IMG/VR virus record: IMGVR_UViG_3300020045_002743
Span: 27,263 to 91,262 of that record
Length of the DNA stretch: 64,000 nucleotides
Source of the DNA: a virus
Reading direction: 5' to 3' (one strand)
In this document: piece by piece, positions 2,242 to 48,138 of the stretch
Layout: every line of letters begins with the position of its first letter
How positions within the stretch are numbered: position 1 is the stretch's first letter
Program-made: the position numbers and the translations under genes
The notes under the pieces: model-generated
What the model saw: the letters and a program-made list of their open reading frames with translations, nothing else
What the model was told of the DNA's origin: nothing
The model's database searches: none

Positions 2242-2424
2242 ATGTATGAAGGTTTAGAAGAGCTAAAGAAAGATTATAATAAATACAATCCATACTTAGC
2301 AACAGGAGAAGATCTTGATCGTATAGGCGAGCTTTGTGGTTTAAAAAGAGAATATAATGAATGGCTAGAATCTGATAGGGATTTCAGGATTAGGGTTTTA
2401 TATGAGTTAGTTAAATATATTTAA
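2242..2424 (+). CDS. mini-protein resembling baseplate wedge (gpJ/DUF2612) core motif
   Basis: AAGGAGA RBS; YNPYLATGEDLDRIGELCGLKR..ESDRDFRIR resembles FDPNSATGIALDNLVALGGITR/ETDEELRLR (28755 ORF) and ATGAQLDVIGRIVGQER (30208 ORF). Confidence 0.6.
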   Translation: MYEGLEELKKDYNKYNPYLATGEDLDRIGELCGLKREYNEWLESDRDFRIRVLYELVKYI

Positions 2425-23155: not shown

Positions 23156-23479
23156 ATGGCAGCTCCACAATTTTTAAATGTTTTACCGCAAGAAACTCTT
23201 AATGTTGATGACGAAGAATATGTTGTCACAGCAATGCCTGCTGAATTTGGTCTTGCTTTTATGCAAAAATACCAGTCAGACATGGATGAAGGTAAACAAG
23301 ATTATAAAGTTATGAAAGAAGTTATCACTTCGACCGTAACTAAAGATAATAAGATCATCGATGCGAAAAGATTTGATATTATATTTGCCCGTAAATATAT
23401 GCATGTACAAAAGCTTTATAACGAAGTTATCAAATACAACTTCGCTGATGTTTTTCAAGCGCCCGGTACAGAAGAGTAA
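23156..23479 (+). CDS. tail assembly chaperone (gpG-like)
   Basis: Between tube genes and TMP; slippery GTTTTTC near 3' end. Confidence 0.75.
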   Translation: MAAPQFLNVLPQETLNVDDEEYVVTAMPAEFGLAFMQKYQSDMDEGKQDYKVMKEVITSTVTKDNKIIDAKRFDIIFARKYMHVQKLYNEVIKYNFADVFQAPGTEE

Positions 23480-26718: not shown

Positions 26719-27606
26719 ATGGACTTGATTCAAAAGAATCGCCAGTATAAATTAATAATTGGCAACTATCAAACTACAAACGCCTTAGAGATTGATGCTC
26801 TTCAAGTTACATTTGATATTTCAAAGTCAGTTAACAATAAGAAGAAAACTAACTCAGCCTCTATTGAAGTTTATAATCTTACTGATGATCAACTAAAGAT
26901 TTTGGATACAGACTTCCCGGCAGCTGTATTCTCAGCGGGTTATGAAGATACTGGTGGTGTCAAAAGACTTTTCTCTGGACAAGTTAATAATGTGACAACC
27001 AGAAAGTCCGGCACGGATCGTGTTACTCAGATACAAATGGGTAGCGGTTACACTGAACTAAACCATGAGGTTCTGAGTCAGGTTGTACCTCCCGGTAAGA
27101 ATGTGCAAGATGCTATTGAAGAACTACGTAAGGCTATTGGTGCTGATCGTGGTGTTTATAATGGTACCAACCTAAACAATCAAATCATCTATGGTTATCC
27201 TTTGTCTGGAACACCTAAAGAGATGCTGGATGAGTTATCTGAAAAATATAACTTAAATTGGCAACTTGATGGTGAAGTTCTTTATGTCAATAATAATGAC
27301 AGAGCTAATACTGAGAACTTCAATCAGGCTTATGTAATTTCTGAGTTTACAGGTATGGTTGAGATTCCTTATCGTACTACCTTGAACAAAGGTAGATCAA
27401 AGAAAGATAAGATTAAGAAGCCCGGAGTTCAATTCAAGATTCTTCTTAATCCAGCTATTATTGCTGGTGATATTATCAGACTTGAAGATACTTTGATTAC
27501 TGGATGGTACAAAGTAGAAGATATCAGACATACTGGTAGCTGGAGAGGGTCACCATGGTATTCGGAAATTAAGGCAACAACACTAGAGAAAGTAGACAGG
27601 AAGTAG
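26719..27606 (+). CDS. baseplate hub protein
   Basis: N.A.I.VYNL, AGY....LF.G, LLNP, Y.V....H.G motifs. Confidence 0.75.
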   Translation: MDLIQKNRQYKLIIGNYQTTNALEIDALQVTFDISKSVNNKKKTNSASIEVYNLTDDQLKILDTDFPAAVFSAGYEDTGGVKRLFSGQVNNVTTRKSGTDRVTQIQMGSGYTELNHEVLSQVVPPGKNVQDAIEELRKAIGADRGVYNGTNLNNQIIYGYPLSGTPKEMLDELSEKYNLNWQLDGEVLYVNNNDRANTENFNQAYVISEFTGMVEIPYRTTLNKGRSKKDKIKKPGVQFKILLNPAIIAGDIIRLEDTLITGWYKVEDIRHTGSWRGSPWYSEIKATTLEKVDRK

Positions 27607-27609
27607 ATT

Positions 27610-28368
27610 ATGGTTCCAGAATTACAAGAATTTGTTATGAGTGCAATCGAATCAGAGAACAATAACAAATACACTTGTATTCCTTGTATTGTTGTTGCTG
27701 TCAGAGATGATTTGAACACTCAGATGGTAGATATTCAACCAAGTGTGAACCAGATGTTCAAGGATGGTACTGTTAAAGAACGTCCTGTAATTCAAGGTGT
27801 TCCTGTCTCTTTTCAAGTGTCTAAGACTTCTGGGTTCACCTTTCCCATTAATGTAGGGGATACTGGCACAGCTATTTTCTCTATGCGTAGTATCGAAGCA
27901 TGGAAAGGTGGTAATGGTAGGCCATCAGCACCCACTAACTTCTCTAAGATGGATAAGAGTGATGCCATCTTCATTCCCGGTATTCAACCTCCGGGTAATG
28001 CTGTGAACAATCCAGCAAAGCATGTACTTACTCATAGCAGTAAGGACACTGTGATTTTCGGCAACATTGGTGGTGCAGAGGCTGAAGTTCGTATTCGTGC
28101 TGATGGTAGTATTGGTATTACAACAAGTAATATGCCCATCATTGTTGAGGGTAGCGATGTGACAATTAATGCTTCTTCAAGTATTAACTTCAACTCACCT
28201 TCAATGATTGTAGATGTTTCAGCAACCACTTGGATTGGTAACATCACACATCAAGGTGACTACGCTCAAACAGGTAATTACACTTTGGTTGGTGGTCAAG
28301 CTACGTTCAATGGGGTAATTTTTAATACTCACAGACATGCGCCGTCTACAGTACCACCAAGTAATTAA
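27610..28368 (+). CDS. baseplate central spike (gp138/gpV-like)
   Basis: VDIQP, FP...GD.G, DAIFIPG, C-terminal HRH iron-binding motif. Confidence 0.85.
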   Translation: MVPELQEFVMSAIESENNNKYTCIPCIVVAVRDDLNTQMVDIQPSVNQMFKDGTVKERPVIQGVPVSFQVSKTSGFTFPINVGDTGTAIFSMRSIEAWKGGNGRPSAPTNFSKMDKSDAIFIPGIQPPGNAVNNPAKHVLTHSSKDTVIFGNIGGAEAEVRIRADGSIGITTSNMPIIVEGSDVTINASSSINFNSPSMIVDVSATTWIGNITHQGDYAQTGNYTLVGGQATFNGVIFNTHRHAPSTVPPSN

Positions 28369-28379
28369 GGAGGTGTGTC

Positions 28380-28736
28380 ATAGATTTTCTACTAAATGAA
28401 CAACATGATATTGTTTGGCACAACGGACCACTTTTGAAGTCTGATACCACACAACCTTTGATCGATACAGTTAGGCAGAGGTTGCTTATCCTCTTGAAGA
28501 CGTTCCAAGGTGAGTGGTTCCTCGATACTACTTATGGAGTACCTTGGTATCAAAGTATACTTGGACGTAAGACTACAAAAGATGGTGTAGACCTAATCTT
28601 CCAGACAGCTATCTTATCAGAAAATGGAGTTAAGGAAATTACATCCTTCTCATCCACCTTCGTTAAAAGACAATATTCCATGACTTTCTCTGTGAGAGTT
28701 AATGATGGTCAGATTACAGCTCCCATCACTATTTAA
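28380..28736 (+). CDS. baseplate wedge gp25-like / sheath initiator (probable ATA start)
   Basis: GEWFLD..YGVPW motif; AAGGAGGT RBS 5 nt before in-frame ATA GAT TTT CTA CTA. Confidence 0.7.
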   Translation: MDFLLNEQHDIVWHNGPLLKSDTTQPLIDTVRQRLLILLKTFQGEWFLDTTYGVPWYQSILGRKTTKDGVDLIFQTAILSENGVKEITSFSSTFVKRQYSMTFSVRVNDGQITAPITI

Positions 28737-28754
28737 TTAAATTAAGGAAATAAA

Positions 28755-30197
28755 ATGGCGGGTATTTCTGACCAAGGCTTTACAATTAAAAGAATGACAG
28801 AGATACTTTCAGACTTACGTGCTGAAGCTACCTCTTTATTTCAAGATTTAGTTGAACCCGGTGATCAGGTCGATACATCCAATAGCTCAGCATTGGGTAG
28901 GCTTGTAGCGCTTGTAAGCCCAAGCTTAGCAGACTTATGGGAAGTAGCACAAGCTGATTACCAAGCATTTGATCCTAATTCTGCAACAGGCATTGCTCTA
29001 GATAACCTTGTAGCCCTTGGGGGTATTACAAGACAAGAACAGACATACTCTACTGCACAAGTGATCATATCAGGAGATAATGGTACTTTGGTGTCATCAG
29101 GTCTGACTGTAGGCAGCTCAATTGACAGTAGTCAGTGGACAATTCTGTCTCCTGTAGCGCTTTCTCCTTCTCAAGCTGTCGGTGTTACGGTTACTCCTCT
29201 AGTCGTCTCAGATAGCACAGTTTATAGCATAACTTACACATCTATCAGCACTGCTAATACGATCAATTTCACAAGTGATGCTTCTGCTACAGCTGCTGAG
29301 ATTGTTGCTGGGTTGAATGCTGTAATTATTGCAAGCCACCCAAGTCTTGTTAGCAGCATTGAAGGTACGTCTCTTAAAATTAGTCGTGTTGATGAATTCT
29401 CTGCTGTAACTTTCACCGTAACCCCTAATCTTGGTATTACTAAAGTACAAAAACTTGGTGAGATTCAGAGCAGTGTAGTGGGCGAGGTTAATGCTGAAGC
29501 TAATACTTTGAATGTTATTCTTACCCCTCAGCTTGGTTGGGATAACGTTACAAACCCTCAAGCTGCAAGTCCGGGACGTAATCTCGAAACAGATGAAGAA
29601 CTTCGTCTAAGATTTAGAGAAACTAAATTTGATAGGGCCTCTAATATTCTCGAAGCTCTTTACTCAGCACTTATTAATCTTGAAGGTGTCGAGGAAGTAA
29701 GAATTTACGAGAATGACACAGATGTTGTAGATGCGTTTGGTGTACCTGCACACAGCTTTATGCCAATTGTTCTTGGTGGTGTTAGTATTGATATTGCAAA
29801 CACCATTTGGGAAAACAAGCCAATGGGTATCAGAAGTTATGGTGATACAGTTGTAGTTATCTTTGATACTCAAGGTTTTTCTCATAACATTGGTTTTGAA
29901 CGTCCTGATCCATTGCCTATATATATTACGATTAATCTTACTACAGACAGTGAATTTCCGGGTACAGGTGTTGATGATATTAAGTCTGCTTTGATTACAT
30001 ACTTTGATAGTAATCTTGGTATTGGCGATGACGTTATTTGGAGCAGATTATTTACACCAATTAACACTGTTAAAGGTCACGAGATTGATAGTTTGTTTAT
30101 TGGTACATCTCCCAGCCCAACAGGTACTGACAGTATTCCGGTAGCTTTCGACATGATTGCTTCACTATCTTCAGACAATATTATAATCAATACATAA
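28755..30197 (+). CDS. baseplate J-like wedge protein
   Basis: ATG.ALD...G.TR, G...ETDEELR.R, KP.GI motifs. Confidence 0.9.
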   Translation: MAGISDQGFTIKRMTEILSDLRAEATSLFQDLVEPGDQVDTSNSSALGRLVALVSPSLADLWEVAQADYQAFDPNSATGIALDNLVALGGITRQEQTYSTAQVIISGDNGTLVSSGLTVGSSIDSSQWTILSPVALSPSQAVGVTVTPLVVSDSTVYSITYTSISTANTINFTSDASATAAEIVAGLNAVIIASHPSLVSSIEGTSLKISRVDEFSAVTFTVTPNLGITKVQKLGEIQSSVVGEVNAEANTLNVILTPQLGWDNVTNPQAASPGRNLETDEELRLRFRETKFDRASNILEALYSALINLEGVEEVRIYENDTDVVDAFGVPAHSFMPIVLGGVSIDIANTIWENKPMGIRSYGDTVVVIFDTQGFSHNIGFERPDPLPIYITINLTTDSEFPGTGVDDIKSALITYFDSNLGIGDDVIWSRLFTPINTVKGHEIDSLFIGTSPSPTGTDSIPVAFDMIASLSSDNIIINT

Positions 30198-30207
30198 GGG
30201 GTGGTAC

Positions 30208-31008
30208 ATGGCTATCACGCCTTTTGAACAAATCGATTATCTTTCTGAAGCTCGTGAACGAGTGACGGAGCAGTTCGTAGGAAAGGAAGTTTTTGATAAA
30301 TATCTTCAACTCCTTATTAATGCTCAAGTAGAAATACAAAAAGTATTTAAAGACCTTATGCAATTAAGAAGTCTTGATACAGCTACTGGAGCCCAACTAG
30401 ATGTTATTGGTAGAATTGTTGGTCAAGAAAGAATCTTACTGAATGCTGACTTCTACAACTTCTTTGGTTTCCAAGGTGCAATAAAAGCATCTAGTTTTGG
30501 TGAGGTGGGTAATCCATCCGTAGGTGGTATGTTCTATGATTTTGGTAAACCACTTGGTGGTAATATCGAACTAGACGACGCTACCTACAGACTCTTCATT
30601 AAAGCCAAGATTTTCAAGAACACAACATCATCCACACCAGAAGAATTTCTAGCTGTACTCAACCTTGTTTTCGGGACTGATACAACAGTATTAACAGAAG
30701 AGGGAGACGCCTCTATTACTGTATTGTTATCTAGAACCTTGACTGACTTTGAAAGGGCGCTCCTCTTCTACATCAGTAATGAGCCGGGTTACCCATCAAG
30801 ACTTATTCCAAAGACGGTGGGTGTGAGAATAAACTTTGGTGAGTATGATGGAGACAACTTCTTTGGATTCCAGGGCGTACCTAATGCTAAGGGGTTTGGA
30901 GAATTTACAGGAAGCTACGGCTGGGGACTTGGTTACGGCCTCCACTATGGTGACAGCGATTATGCAACAGTGAGTGGTGGGTACTTCGCCTCACTCTATC
31001 AAATTTAA
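30208..31008 (+). CDS. baseplate wedge protein (DUF2612-like)
   Basis: ATG.QLD.IG.IVG, FFGF, DD..YR..IKAKI..N. Confidence 0.82.
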   Translation: MAITPFEQIDYLSEARERVTEQFVGKEVFDKYLQLLINAQVEIQKVFKDLMQLRSLDTATGAQLDVIGRIVGQERILLNADFYNFFGFQGAIKASSFGEVGNPSVGGMFYDFGKPLGGNIELDDATYRLFIKAKIFKNTTSSTPEEFLAVLNLVFGTDTTVLTEEGDASITVLLSRTLTDFERALLFYISNEPGYPSRLIPKTVGVRINFGEYDGDNFFGFQGVPNAKGFGEFTGSYGWGLGYGLHYGDSDYATVSGGYFASLYQI

Positions 31009-34043: not shown

Positions 34044-34607
34044 ATGTGTAAGGTCAGTGAGTGTTTAAAAATAGAAGGAAACAAAGAGAAACTTGTTAAA
34101 CGGATTTCTCAGCGCACTAAAATTAATCCCGAAACTGGGTGTATTGAGTGGACAGCAAGGTCAAGAACATCTTTTGGCTACGGGCAAATTGGGTTGAAAG
34201 ATTTTACGGGTCTACGTGTTCACAGGGTTGTTTGGACTATAGCTAACGGGGAAATACCCGAAAACCTGTTGATTATGCACTCTTGTGATAACCCACTTTG
34301 TTGTAATTTAGAACACCTTTCTCTAGGCACTCATAAAGATAATACTGCCGATATGTGGACTAAAGGGCGTCAATCAGAGCCACCAATCCACAAAGGTTTA
34401 GAGGAATATAGAGAACGAAACCCCGGAAAATTTCGTGGTGAAGAAAATGCTACATCTAAACTAAAAGAATTTCAGGTTTTAGAAATTCTTACTTCCCCAA
34501 AAAGCCCTAAGTATTTTTGCGAAAAATTCAATATTTCTAAGCATACTATTTCTTTAATCAGAAAACGAAAAATATGGAAACATGTTGAGGTTCCTAGTGA
34601 ATATTAG
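34044..34607 (+). CDS. HNH homing endonuclease
   Basis: GCIEW, GYG, VHRVVW, MHSCDNPLCCNLEHL..GT...N. Confidence 0.9.
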   Translation: MCKVSECLKIEGNKEKLVKRISQRTKINPETGCIEWTARSRTSFGYGQIGLKDFTGLRVHRVVWTIANGEIPENLLIMHSCDNPLCCNLEHLSLGTHKDNTADMWTKGRQSEPPIHKGLEEYRERNPGKFRGEENATSKLKEFQVLEILTSPKSPKYFCEKFNISKHTISLIRKRKIWKHVEVPSEY

Positions 34608-36255: not shown

Positions 36256-36594
36256 ATGGTTTGGAAGATATTGGATCGTGCTGGGACATTAGCATATCTA
36301 TTACTGTCGACAATACTAATAACAATACTAATGTCCAATTCCAGTGAGAATGCTGGTGTTAACAACTTCTCACAAAAACTAGACTTAGTAAAAGAAGAGA
36401 TACTTAAAGTTGTAGTTAATAACACTACGTATCTTGAAGGAAGAATAAACAATGTATCAGAAAGACAAGATAACTACCAAGTCACAACTGATCAGCGTGT
36501 TTATGTGTTGGAACAAAGAATTAAAGAATTGCAAAACAACAATAAAAGTAGTCAGAAAATGATTCAGAATAATATCCAGACTTTGACTAACTAG
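36256..36594 (+). CDS. membrane-anchored coiled-coil protein
   Basis: AGGAGG RBS; N-terminal TM. Confidence 0.55.
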   Translation: MVWKILDRAGTLAYLLLSTILITILMSNSSENAGVNNFSQKLDLVKEEILKVVVNNTTYLEGRINNVSERQDNYQVTTDQRVYVLEQRIKELQNNNKSSQKMIQNNIQTLTN

Positions 36595-36664
36595 AAAGAA
36601 TAAAAATAAGCACTGCCCTAGCAGACATTTGAGGTTACGCCATTAACCTTATCTCAGAACTTTG

Positions 36665-36695
36665 CCCCGCGTCCGAAAGGATAGCGGGGATTTTT
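36665..36695. terminator. terminator at convergence of late and middle blocks
   Basis: CCCCGC..TCC-GAAA-GGA..GCGGGA followed by TTTTT. Confidence 0.7.
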
Positions 36696-36856
36696 ATCGT
36701 CTTAAGTATAATCTTTAGAATCCTCATCTTGCCCCCCTTACTCTAAAACCACCTAAACTAGGTGCCCAATCACAACCTGTAATATGACGAAGCTCTTTAA
36801 CTTTCAGTTCGTTAGCTTCATAATCTTTCTTACACACCCATTTGATAAAATTCTCG

Positions 36857-37150
36857 TCACTCACTTTTCAACTCCTCAAATTTGCTGGTAAATGTATTAT
36901 AATCCCTATAGAACCAGGCCGTAAAGAACTCTTTTGTAACGGATGTGTCTCCTACAAACCATCTACTATTCCAACTGTATGTGTGCATACTCATAGCATC
37001 AGCAATGTCTGTATCAGAACCACCTTTCACATATACACCACAGCCACCATCTTCAAAATCAAATATCTCGACTTCTGTAACACCATGTACAGCTAGCAAT
37101 TGATCATACATTGAAGTTTTGGGTTCTTTTAACCACTCTTGTTGACTCAT
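36857..37150 (-). CDS. stand-alone baseplate J-like domain protein (97 aa)
   Basis: AAGGA RBS at ATG 37150; MYDQLLAVHGVTEVEIFD..YVKGGSDTDIADAM..VGDTSV..WFYR aligns by eye to LYSALINLEGVEEVRIYE..IVLGGVSIDIANTI..YGDTVV..GFER of 28755 ORF. Confidence 0.6.
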   Translation of the reverse strand: MSQQEWLKEPKTSMYDQLLAVHGVTEVEIFDFEDGGCGVYVKGGSDTDIADAMSMHTYSWNSRWFVGDTSVTKEFFTAWFYRDYNTFTSKFEELKSE

Positions 37151-37151
37151 T

Positions 37152-37418
37152 TTATTGTCCTTGTCCATGTTGATAGAAGTATTTAACATCACCTGTGTTG
37201 ATGTAATGCCTAACAGCTTCAAGCGCTTCTGATACATACAGCTTATACCTAGAATTAACAAAATACCGCATATCTTCACCTAGGATAGAATTGAACGCAT
37301 CTTCAGTGTATGTAGTATGAGAGAAAGATCCTGTCTTGTGGGTCCATAATTTCTCTGGCAGAATCATACCTTTCAAACCAGAGAGGCTTAGGTTTTGGTT
37401 TAAACGTAAACATATCAT
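37152..37418 (-). CDS. hypothetical protein
   Basis: 88-aa ORF coupled to neighbours. Confidence 0.55.
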   Translation of the reverse strand: MICLRLNQNLSLSGLKGMILPEKLWTHKTGSFSHTTYTEDAFNSILGEDMRYFVNSRYKLYVSEALEAVRHYINTGDVKYFYQHGQGQ

Positions 37419-37624
37419 TCCTCCAAATTAGTAACTTTGACACTACTCTCGAAAGTCTTTTCTAAATCCTTCAGACTCTTATTAATCACTTGTTGCTTTT
37501 GTTCAATTACACTCACACCACCTTCAAGCTGAGACTTCTTCCAGTCTAAATACAAGTAACCACCTAGTAGCACTGTGGCTAAGAGGAAGAGTGTGGCTGC
37601 AATGTCTACGAGAGGGCCTTTCAT
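37415..37624 (-). CDS. small membrane protein
   Basis: N-terminal TM. Confidence 0.55.
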   Translation of the reverse strand: MKGPLVDIAATLFLLATVLLGGYLYLDWKKSQLEGGVSVIEQKQQVINKSLKDLEKTFESSVKVTNLEE

Positions 37625-38445: not shown

Positions 38446-38467
38446 ATACCCCGCACAATGCGGGGTT
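38446..38467 (-). terminator. intrinsic terminator after nrdB
   Basis: ACCCCGCA/TGCGGGGT hairpin followed by T-run on minus strand. Confidence 0.7.
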
Positions 38468-44943: not shown

Positions 44944-45594
44944 TTACTCCCTCCCATCTTTAAGATATCCAAAATACTTCATTTCAGCCGCTTGTCTTGC
45001 CGCATAGGCGGCTTCAACAGTTTTAAAGTATCCGAGCTTGATAAATTTCTTATCTACAGTAATGTAAGCCTCCCAAGAGTCTCTTGCAGAATAGTAACTA
45101 ACTCCTGTATAGCCTGATGTGTTGAGATTACTCTTTCTACGATTGTATTGTTGTGTAGATTTATCAACCCACCTACAATTGTCTTTACAGTAAGGACCAT
45201 TAACATCCGTCCTGTCTAATTCCAGATTATCGGAATAACCTTCTTGCATGTCACCCCAAAACCCTTCAAAAGACTCCCAAGATTCACAGTATGTAATACC
45301 CCTTGGTCCATAATCTTTGAAATCATCAGAGTTACATCTATTTTTCATTGAACCCCAAATACGATGAGGGCGTGTATTACTCATTCCATGTGTTCTCGGG
45401 AGATTCTTAATTTCTTCATAGTAACAGCCGCAGGAAGTGGAGTCTCCATTCTTCAACAAAAATCCTAGTACTGCACGTTCAGTACCACAATCACACAAAC
45501 AATTCCAACTTGCATTTTTACCAACCAAACCTGCATAAGATAGGACGTTCCATCGTCCAAATGCAAGTCCTTCTAGTTTTGATCTTACCGGCAT
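44944..45594 (-). CDS. HNH/AP2-domain homing endonuclease
   Basis: CLCDCG..SCGC, YGPRGI, LDRTDVNGPY..DNCRW, AP2-like C-terminus. Confidence 0.88.
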   Translation of the reverse strand: MPVRSKLEGLAFGRWNVLSYAGLVGKNASWNCLCDCGTERAVLGFLLKNGDSTSCGCYYEEIKNLPRTHGMSNTRPHRIWGSMKNRCNSDDFKDYGPRGITYCESWESFEGFWGDMQEGYSDNLELDRTDVNGPYCKDNCRWVDKSTQQYNRRKSNLNTSGYTGVSYYSARDSWEAYITVDKKFIKLGYFKTVEAAYAARQAAEMKYFGYLKDGRE

Positions 45595-47371: not shown

Positions 47372-47558
47372 TCGATTCTTTCCATTTATTGGTTAGAAGA
47401 TACCAATCTGTACCACGCGTCTTATCCCAAACCGATAACACTCCTTTACTAAAAGTCTGTACATCCACTTGAGTATGGTTGCCTAGTGAACCTGATACTA
47501 GAAGTGCAATTACACTTCGGATTGCTTCGTCAAAATCACCTTCAATTTTCTTGCTCAT
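47358..47558 (-). CDS. hypothetical protein
   Basis: AGGAG RBS; in operon. Confidence 0.5.
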   Translation of the reverse strand: MSKKIEGDFDEAIRSVIALLVSGSLGNHTQVDVQTFSKGVLSVWDKTRGTDWYLLTNKWKESNEKE

Positions 47559-48138
47559 TGTATTTCTCCTGTCCTAAAACATTACGAATTTGATTTCGTC
47601 TGACTTCTTCATTAGATCCTGCCTTGACACCTCTATCCTTCAACCACTTTTTTTGCTGTGCTGCTGACAAGTTGATGATCTTGATCACGCCTTTCTCTTT
47701 CTCAGCTTGTTCGAAGGTCAGTCCATGAGCATCCATGTAGGTTTTCACAGAGTGGCAATCCAAACATAGGCGTTGTAAACCATCATAGCCCACCATCAAG
47801 ATACTGTCAAAATAATTTTCAAAATCTGACTTCTCAGTGAAGGTATTGTGTCCATCTATGTGATCTATCTGAATATCGGCAATCTTAAACCACTCTTTAC
47901 AAATCTCGCATTGACATTTCCACTTCCTACGGTTTGTGTCATCCATGTCAGGGACAATGCCAAGCTCTAGATAAGAAAGCTTTGTAGGACTAGACATCCA
48001 AGATTTACGGATAGCTCCACGAACAACAGTGAGCATCTTGTACTCAATTGACTTTCCTGTCTCCCTATCAATTTGTTTCAGGAGTTTTTCTAGATTAGCT
48101 TTACGTTTGGCAATATCAGCTTGAGTTGGAAGTGTCAT
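47542..48138 (-). CDS. HNH endonuclease (core replication-module type)
   Basis: C.IC, QIDH, LQRLC..CH..KT. Confidence 0.8.
   Translation of the reverse strand: MTLPTQADIAKRKANLEKLLKQIDRETGKSIEYKMLTVVRGAIRKSWMSSPTKLSYLELGIVPDMDDTNRRKWKCQCEICKEWFKIADIQIDHIDGHNTFTEKSDFENYFDSILMVGYDGLQRLCLDCHSVKTYMDAHGLTFEQAEKEKGVIKIINLSAAQQKKWLKDRGVKAGSNEEVRRNQIRNVLGQEKYNEQEN

Follow-up and report, generated by a model that had tools for sequence, protein, structure and literature searches.

An uncultured phage with a contractile tail and a genome of about 91 kb encodes, outside its baseplate genes, a small protein that corresponds to one domain of a baseplate wedge protein. This protein of 97 amino acids, referred to here as mini-protein 2 (mini2), is a single-domain, stand-alone and long-diverged derivative of the baseplate J family, and its gene is a selectively maintained accessory gene. 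We hold with high confidence the two parts of this reading together, homology to the wedge domain and accessory-gene status. The window, that is the whole stretch of 64,000 nucleotides that was analysed, covers 27263-91262 of an IMG/VR virus record of 91,262 bp whose completeness was rated at 100%, and positions below are those of the window. The closest cultured phage, as judged by the wedge protein J (gpJ), is Pseudomonas phage vB_PsaM_M1 with 57% identity. Coordinates of mini2, of its neighbours and of the wedge genes are collected in Table 1.

Table 1. Positions in the window of mini2, its surroundings and the genes with which it is compared
Feature	Position	Strand	Remarks
Mini-protein 1 (mini1)	2242..2424	+	60 aa; weak similarity to gpJ 63-94 and 277-286
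Baseplate hub	26719	+	
gp25-like wedge	28434	+	
Baseplate J (gpJ) CDS	28755-30197	+	480 aa; Pfam Baseplate_J (PF04865), 42.3 bits
gpJ part homologous to mini2	29643..29906	+	gpJ residues 297-384
DUF2612 wedge protein	30208-31008	+	Wedge 1; T4 gp7 / P2 gpI-like
Hypervariable cargo slot	36694..37413	.	mini2 and three small neighbouring ORFs; flanks 36593-36693 and 37414-37624 conserved in relatives
Downstream ORF	36724..36864	-	46 aa; shares 8 nt with the mini2 3′ end at its GTG start; C-terminal LGGFR motif also in a 67-aa ORF of L041
mini2 CDS	36857..37150	-	97 aa; homologue of the central alpha/beta (D3) domain of wedge protein J, with a family-specific C-terminal helix (residues 84-95)
Upstream neighbour	37152..37443	-	Split here, in frames of 46 aa and 88 aa that overlap; in L041 the homologue is one ORF of 136 aa
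Shine-Dalgarno-like AAGGA	37158..37162	-	7 nt before the mini2 ATG (37150); read from the sequence

The mini2 gene and its surroundings

The baseplate module (26719-31008, + strand) lies in the late block. On the same strand, the DUF2612 wedge gene is followed by fibres, an HNH gene, endolysin, holin and spanins. The - strand, which runs towards this late block, carries genes for DNA polymerase exonuclease, HNH proteins, MazG, thymidylate synthase, nrdA, nrdB and a phrog_8579 protein together with small ORFs, and the run of small ORFs includes mini2 and two tiny ORFs at its end. The gene is therefore found outside the baseplate module, 6.7 kb downstream of it, on the - strand and past nrdA and nrdB. 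A first-pass annotation of this DNA had located it at the end of a leftward non-structural block, opposite in strand to the baseplate operon. This placement is correct, the site being the 3′ end of the nucleotide-metabolism block. The ‘non-late’ timing proposed for mini2 at the same time is drawn from gene position only, and a promoter scan performed no better than on shuffled sequences.

Directly after the nrdB stop, we observed a GC-rich hairpin with an 8-bp stem and a T-run (38448-38466, minus strand), which is terminator-like. The cluster of small ORFs containing mini2 may thus form a separate or a read-through transcription unit. At least three free-standing HNH endonuclease genes are present in the window (34044-34607, 44944-45594 and 47542-48138), one of which is located between the tail fibre genes and endolysin; this gene set fits a genome with active cassette exchange.

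The mini2 frame runs on the minus strand from ATG at 37150 to TGA at 36859-36857 and encodes 97 aa. Coordinates, strand and length agree with those annotated previously, as does the presence of the gene's own ribosome binding site, AAGGA at 7 nt from the ATG. The start at 37150 was preferred over that of a longer, 140-aa GTG frame because all close homologues of mini2 begin with MSQQ. Only 1 nt separates the stop of the preceding ORF from the mini2 start and, with the overlap at the 3′ end of the gene (Table 1), this gives the typical picture of translationally coupled phage genes. In the upstream neighbour, 4 bases at 37307 are missing in contigs from three sequencing runs. The window copy therefore probably carries a 4-bp insertion, which would reflect either a pseudogene or an assembly error. 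In a look-up of sequencing runs, the shares were at most 0.09 and, among four runs, mini2 was covered by only 54 bases, in X4.

Relationship to the wedge protein J

Direct BLASTP comparison of mini2 with the phage's own gpJ gave no significant match, and a match perceived by eye could for this reason alone have been due to chance. No Pfam family was reached by mini2 at E up to 1, and no PHROG was found. Neither tblastn nor megablast against 50,697 cultured phage records returned a match to mini2 or its region, and the ESM Atlas gave no usable match for the protein. With 12 members of the mini-J family as queries, Baseplate_J was not reached at E up to 10 (the cut-off of the model being 21.1 bits).

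With profiles, the likeness became significant. Nine homologues of mini2, 71–91% identical, aligned with gpJ in hhalign with an E of 0.0022, residues 14-53 being placed on 301-350. The HMM built from these nine (A2) had XM1 gp16, a wedge protein, as its only or top sequence match in the PDB (E 0.07 and 0.036) and also matched the gpJ ORFs of two related phages (E 1e-3). When the family alignment of 51 sequences was compared with 13 gpJ from related phages, hhalign reached a probability of 95.3% and an E of 2.3e-8 over 73 columns. In this alignment, mini2 residues 10-84 are colinear with gpJ 297-384. The first-pass annotation had proposed, from four blocks recognised by eye, that mini2 represents, as a separate protein, the stretch of gpJ immediately after ETDEELRLR. 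The homology is supported by the profile match, and all four blocks are reproduced in register. A lack of profile or structure match to Baseplate_J had been named there as grounds for rejecting the idea. The Pfam model itself was not reached, but the profile–profile match to gpJ is significant and the fold agrees with it.

Two further searches point in the same direction. Among 2,433 stop-to-stop ORFs from the window and 23 related loci, the family HMM ranked mini2 first, and ranks 2–19 were all gpJ, matched at the same position with E from 5e-5 to 6e-3. In addition, P0017, an 81-aa stand-alone ORF in a related genome, matched by plain BLASTP both mini2 (E 7e-7) and gpJ 331-385 (E 3e-5 and 4e-5), which makes it a transitive bridge between the two. 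A tblastn search of the 50,697 phage records with P0017 gave only 40 weak matches at one conserved locus, for which those records that are annotated give baseplate wedge subunit or baseplate protein.

A model of mini2 obtained with AlphaFold2 from the 51-sequence alignment had a pLDDT of 91.5 and a pTM of 0.82, with the order alpha-beta-beta-alpha-beta-beta-alpha; it replaced an earlier model from 9 sequences with a pLDDT of 63. The three best Foldseek matches of the model were the Pam3, PhiTE and XM1 wedge proteins, and the 336-aa PhiTE chain 9cuy_R was also among the top fold matches. The Foldseek comparison suggested in the earlier annotation thus placed wedge proteins on top. VIA-align, run exhaustively over 48,161 chains, had J-type wedge proteins in all of its top 6 places: Pam3 gp22 (Z 9.8), PhiTE (8.1), Bas63 wedge 2 residues 287-379 (7.7), XM1 (7.1), E217 (5.8) and diffocin (4.8), the top chains being 7yfz_A, 9cuy_T, 9ndy_H residues 287-379, 7kh1_A5, 8env_J and 8v3w_E. 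Unrelated folds scored 4.3 at most, and the pyocin R2 and Mu wedge proteins were found among them at 4.2.

The position of the match in Bas63 wedge 2, a protein of four domains D1–D4 (PMC12609058), indicates that the modelled mini2 corresponds to its D3. Wedge 1 has two domains, comparable to D1 and D3, and its D2 is of the same fold type as D3 of wedge 2 (PMC12609058). The mini2 family profile nevertheless did not match the gp25-like wedge protein of the phage, nor was any profile similarity detectable with its DUF2612 wedge 1 protein. Mini2 is a descendant of the J lineage and not of the wedge 1 lineage.

With members of the J family (PF04865; T4 gp6, P2 gpJ, Mu gp47, Pam3 gp22, Bas63 wedge 2, XM1 gp16), mini2 shares the central alpha/beta domain in both profile and fold, as well as the same order of motifs, Y..L...GV..V, GG...IA, GDT and F.R. 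In contrast to these proteins, it consists of a single domain; the core-bundle part at the N-terminus, the inserted domain and the C-terminal domain are all missing. Its gene lies away from the baseplate operon, and close relatives can do without it. Compared with the corresponding gpJ domain, mini2 carries an additional helix at its C-terminus, and its aromatic content is roughly doubled.

Some other matches to the family HMM were observed. A conserved ORF of about 107 aa in the tail module (23156-23479, + strand) matched positions 55-85 of the mini-J HMM weakly (E 0.015-9), and so did its equivalents of about 106 aa in L006, L007, L008, L010, L016 and L024. This likeness may be due to chance or to a shared beta-hairpin element. 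The repetitive secreted protein P0016 (1,231 aa), matched in 8 stretches, was rejected as spurious, since weak short matches to an aromatic-rich motif had been summed over its repeats.

Family, selection and a variable cargo slot

Profile searches yielded 52 small stand-alone proteins of 50–129 aa in about 50 clusters, which carry no family name. They fall into two subtypes, the mini2 type of 86–129 aa and the P0017 type of 81 aa (about 25 clusters). Even where identity falls to about 20–40%, almost every one of the 52 is intact and their lengths stay uniform, and the residues of the fold core are conserved. Longer, fused forms were not found at E 0.01 or below among 5.8 billion sequences, which is weak evidence, and neither a scan of viral contigs (query A1) nor one of metagenomes (A2) returned loci. 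The P0017 type sits away from the mini2 slot, in another small-ORF region of related phages. A gene of this type is intact in G004 (L027:1471-1716, - strand), and a 47-aa remnant is found at G006:C1:46565-46669 (- strand).

The copies in the window and in L041, the only pair for which DNA was available, share 58% of their amino acids, with a pN of 0.31 and a pS of 0.79, the latter being saturated. Since synonymous sites are saturated while 58% of the residues have been kept, mini2 is not a decaying fragment. Neutral decay, with dN/dS near 1 and frequent stops in relatives, had been mentioned in the first-pass annotation as the outcome that would speak against a functional gene; the values of this one pair, together with the intact state of nearly all 52 relatives, describe instead a conserved gene. 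Some copies are truncated, namely P0011 (shifted C-terminus), P0053 (50 aa) and the G006 remnant, and the gene adjacent to mini2 is frameshifted, which shows that the slot also tolerates decay.

The gene was absent from nine complete relatives, including three with a 96–97% identical gpJ. Between the conserved flanks given in Table 1, relatives carry 181–1384 bp of other content. In the close relative L006 (18350-19195, - strand), the slot holds a SPFH/Band-7 lipoprotein (Pfam E 1.3e-15) and two small membrane proteins but no mini2; in L016, it encodes a 124-aa protein of no assigned family; and in L041, a mini2-type gene is present with the gene order shuffled. Thus, mini2 is cargo in a hypervariable slot. 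Its presence does not follow the gpJ that the phage carries, which speaks against a function linked to that particular baseplate.

Possible roles of the free domain

Published wedge structures suggest that the D3 type of domain is one of the modules by which wedge subunits bind one another and the fibres, so that a free copy of this domain would be a protein-binding module. The protein may act as a mimic or a competitor of the wedge domain on a target other than the baseplate of its own phage. A host immune sensor would be the likeliest such target, either one that detects wedge proteins or one with a J-like scaffold of its own, and mini2 would then occupy the sensor or shield the wedge partner. 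We put forward this mimicry of a sensor's target, with host sensors of wedges as the leading candidates, as our preferred but tentative explanation.

Such a role, like the decoy or interference function suggested in the first-pass annotation, is made more plausible by reports of host immune proteins with baseplate-like sensor domains (PMC13192584, PMC13092281). [quoted passage not shown] In the same system, the escape mutation lies in the gp7-like wedge subunit, and a near-identical virion protein provided in trans behaves as a non-activating competitor (PMC13192584). A validated defence system containing a phage baseplate protein domain was also described with DefensePredictor in 2026 (PMC13092281). 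DruH and this system use J-like or baseplate-like modules outside the virion, for protein recognition in phage–host conflict, and may represent a class of targets for a free wedge domain. Unlike mini2, they are host-encoded, large, multidomain and fused to effectors, and the link is conceptual, with no sequence relation detected by PADLOC. A PADLOC scan for mini2 itself gave no match, a result that is uninformative for an inhibitor.

As a small accessory gene of patchy distribution in a hypervariable region, mini2 resembles genes for counter-defence mimics or decoys. The conserved residues that it has in common with gpJ are mostly core residues and are thus uninformative as to which surface would be mimicked. 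Literature searches returned nothing specific on stand-alone wedge domains or on baseplate decoys. More broadly, free single copies of wedge domains, represented here by two subtypes in one phage group, could constitute a general class of phage counter-defence proteins, directed against wedge-sensing immune sensors with baseplate-like domains (DruH-type, baseplate-domain nucleases), but we regard this generalisation as rather doubtful. If free wedge domains do answer such sensors, counter-defence genes could be mined as single-domain copies of virion proteins in cargo slots. Domains of structural proteins that are reused as small free proteins in non-structural regions are missed by standard annotation libraries. 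Were mini2 only an optional assembly helper, the gain would be a modest one in annotation.

This last role, in which mini2 would optionally assist or join the baseplate of its own phage, is unlikely. The free D3-like domain would dock on nascent gpJ or on the DUF2612 wedge and would modulate, time or decorate assembly. The homologous domain does take part in wedge–wedge and wedge–fibre docking in solved baseplates (PMC9942802, PMC12609058, PMC11972413). However, the absence of mini2 from nine complete relatives with gpJ up to 97% identical means that it is not needed for that baseplate, and its gene stands outside the late operon, on the opposite strand and in a cargo slot. Prediction of a complex of gpJ with mini2 gave a score of 0.00, obtained without controls and speaking neither for nor against binding. 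Less likely again is a poison of assembly, a free domain that would enter the wedges of rival contractile machines, be they co-infecting phages, tailocins of the host or T6SS (TssF/TssG), and keep the ring from forming. The same homology and fold evidence can be cited here, the fold matches include the pyocin R2 and diffocin wedges, at lower Z (4.2–4.8), and a patchy accessory distribution fits a competition gene. Nevertheless, the likeness to tailocin wedges is no better than that to phage wedges, we found no precedent in the literature and no evidence of a target. That mini2 is what remains, without function, of a gpJ segment once duplicated or recombined, and is drifting to loss, appears very improbable. 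The patchiness of the gene, the truncated copies P0011, P0053 and G006 and the frameshifted neighbour would agree with it; against it stand the intact state of nearly all 52 members, their uniform length within two subtypes and their conserved core residues, the pN of 0.31 beside saturated synonymous sites, a confidently predicted fold with a family-specific extra helix, and a putative ribosome binding site of its own with apparent translational coupling to the neighbours. The least probable reading of all is an unrelated small alpha/beta protein with a convergent likeness to gpJ, for instance a ferredoxin-like regulatory or metal-binding domain. The lower structural matches do include the C-terminal domains of ANL ligases and of CzcD/ZnT, and Pfam and PHROGs gave no match. 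Yet the profile match is colinear over 73 columns (E 2e-8), P0017 provides a transitive link, and J-type wedge proteins rank clearly above unrelated folds in VIA-align.

A two-part arrangement was also weighed, in which mini1, with D1-like N-terminal motifs, and the D3-like mini2 would rebuild a minimal split wedge and work only together. We consider it quite improbable, ranking it between the assembly poison and the remnant. The first-pass annotation had described mini1 as resembling the parts of gpJ just before the mini2 segment. BLASTP agrees with this, matching mini1 to gpJ residues 63-94 (E 5e-5) and to 277-286, which contain the ETDEELRLR motif (E 0.07). The hhalign comparison gave little support, with an E of 0.0027 and a probability of 11%. 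In gpJ, the stretches resembling mini1 adjoin the mini2-like part (297-384) once the inserted domain is skipped, and wedge 1 proteins naturally have only D1-type and D3-type domains (PMC12609058), both of which would suit a split wedge. The two-gene ‘system’ proposed at the same time found no support. The genes are 34 kb apart and on opposite strands, and no homologue of mini1 was found in any of the nine related complete genomes. Whereas the mini2 family extends to about 50 clusters, a scan of viral contigs for mini1 gave only a partial match of 12 residues. Both genes are missing from the nine relatives, so that their co-occurrence is that of this one genome.

A further short ORF with a likeness to a structural protein was observed outside the window. 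This 74-aa ORF (L043:151-375, - strand, the same as G000:C1:22850-23074) is suggestive of a tail-sheath fragment but unproven as such; it matches sheath residues 345-362 over 18 residues with 50% identity and a pairwise E of 0.003.
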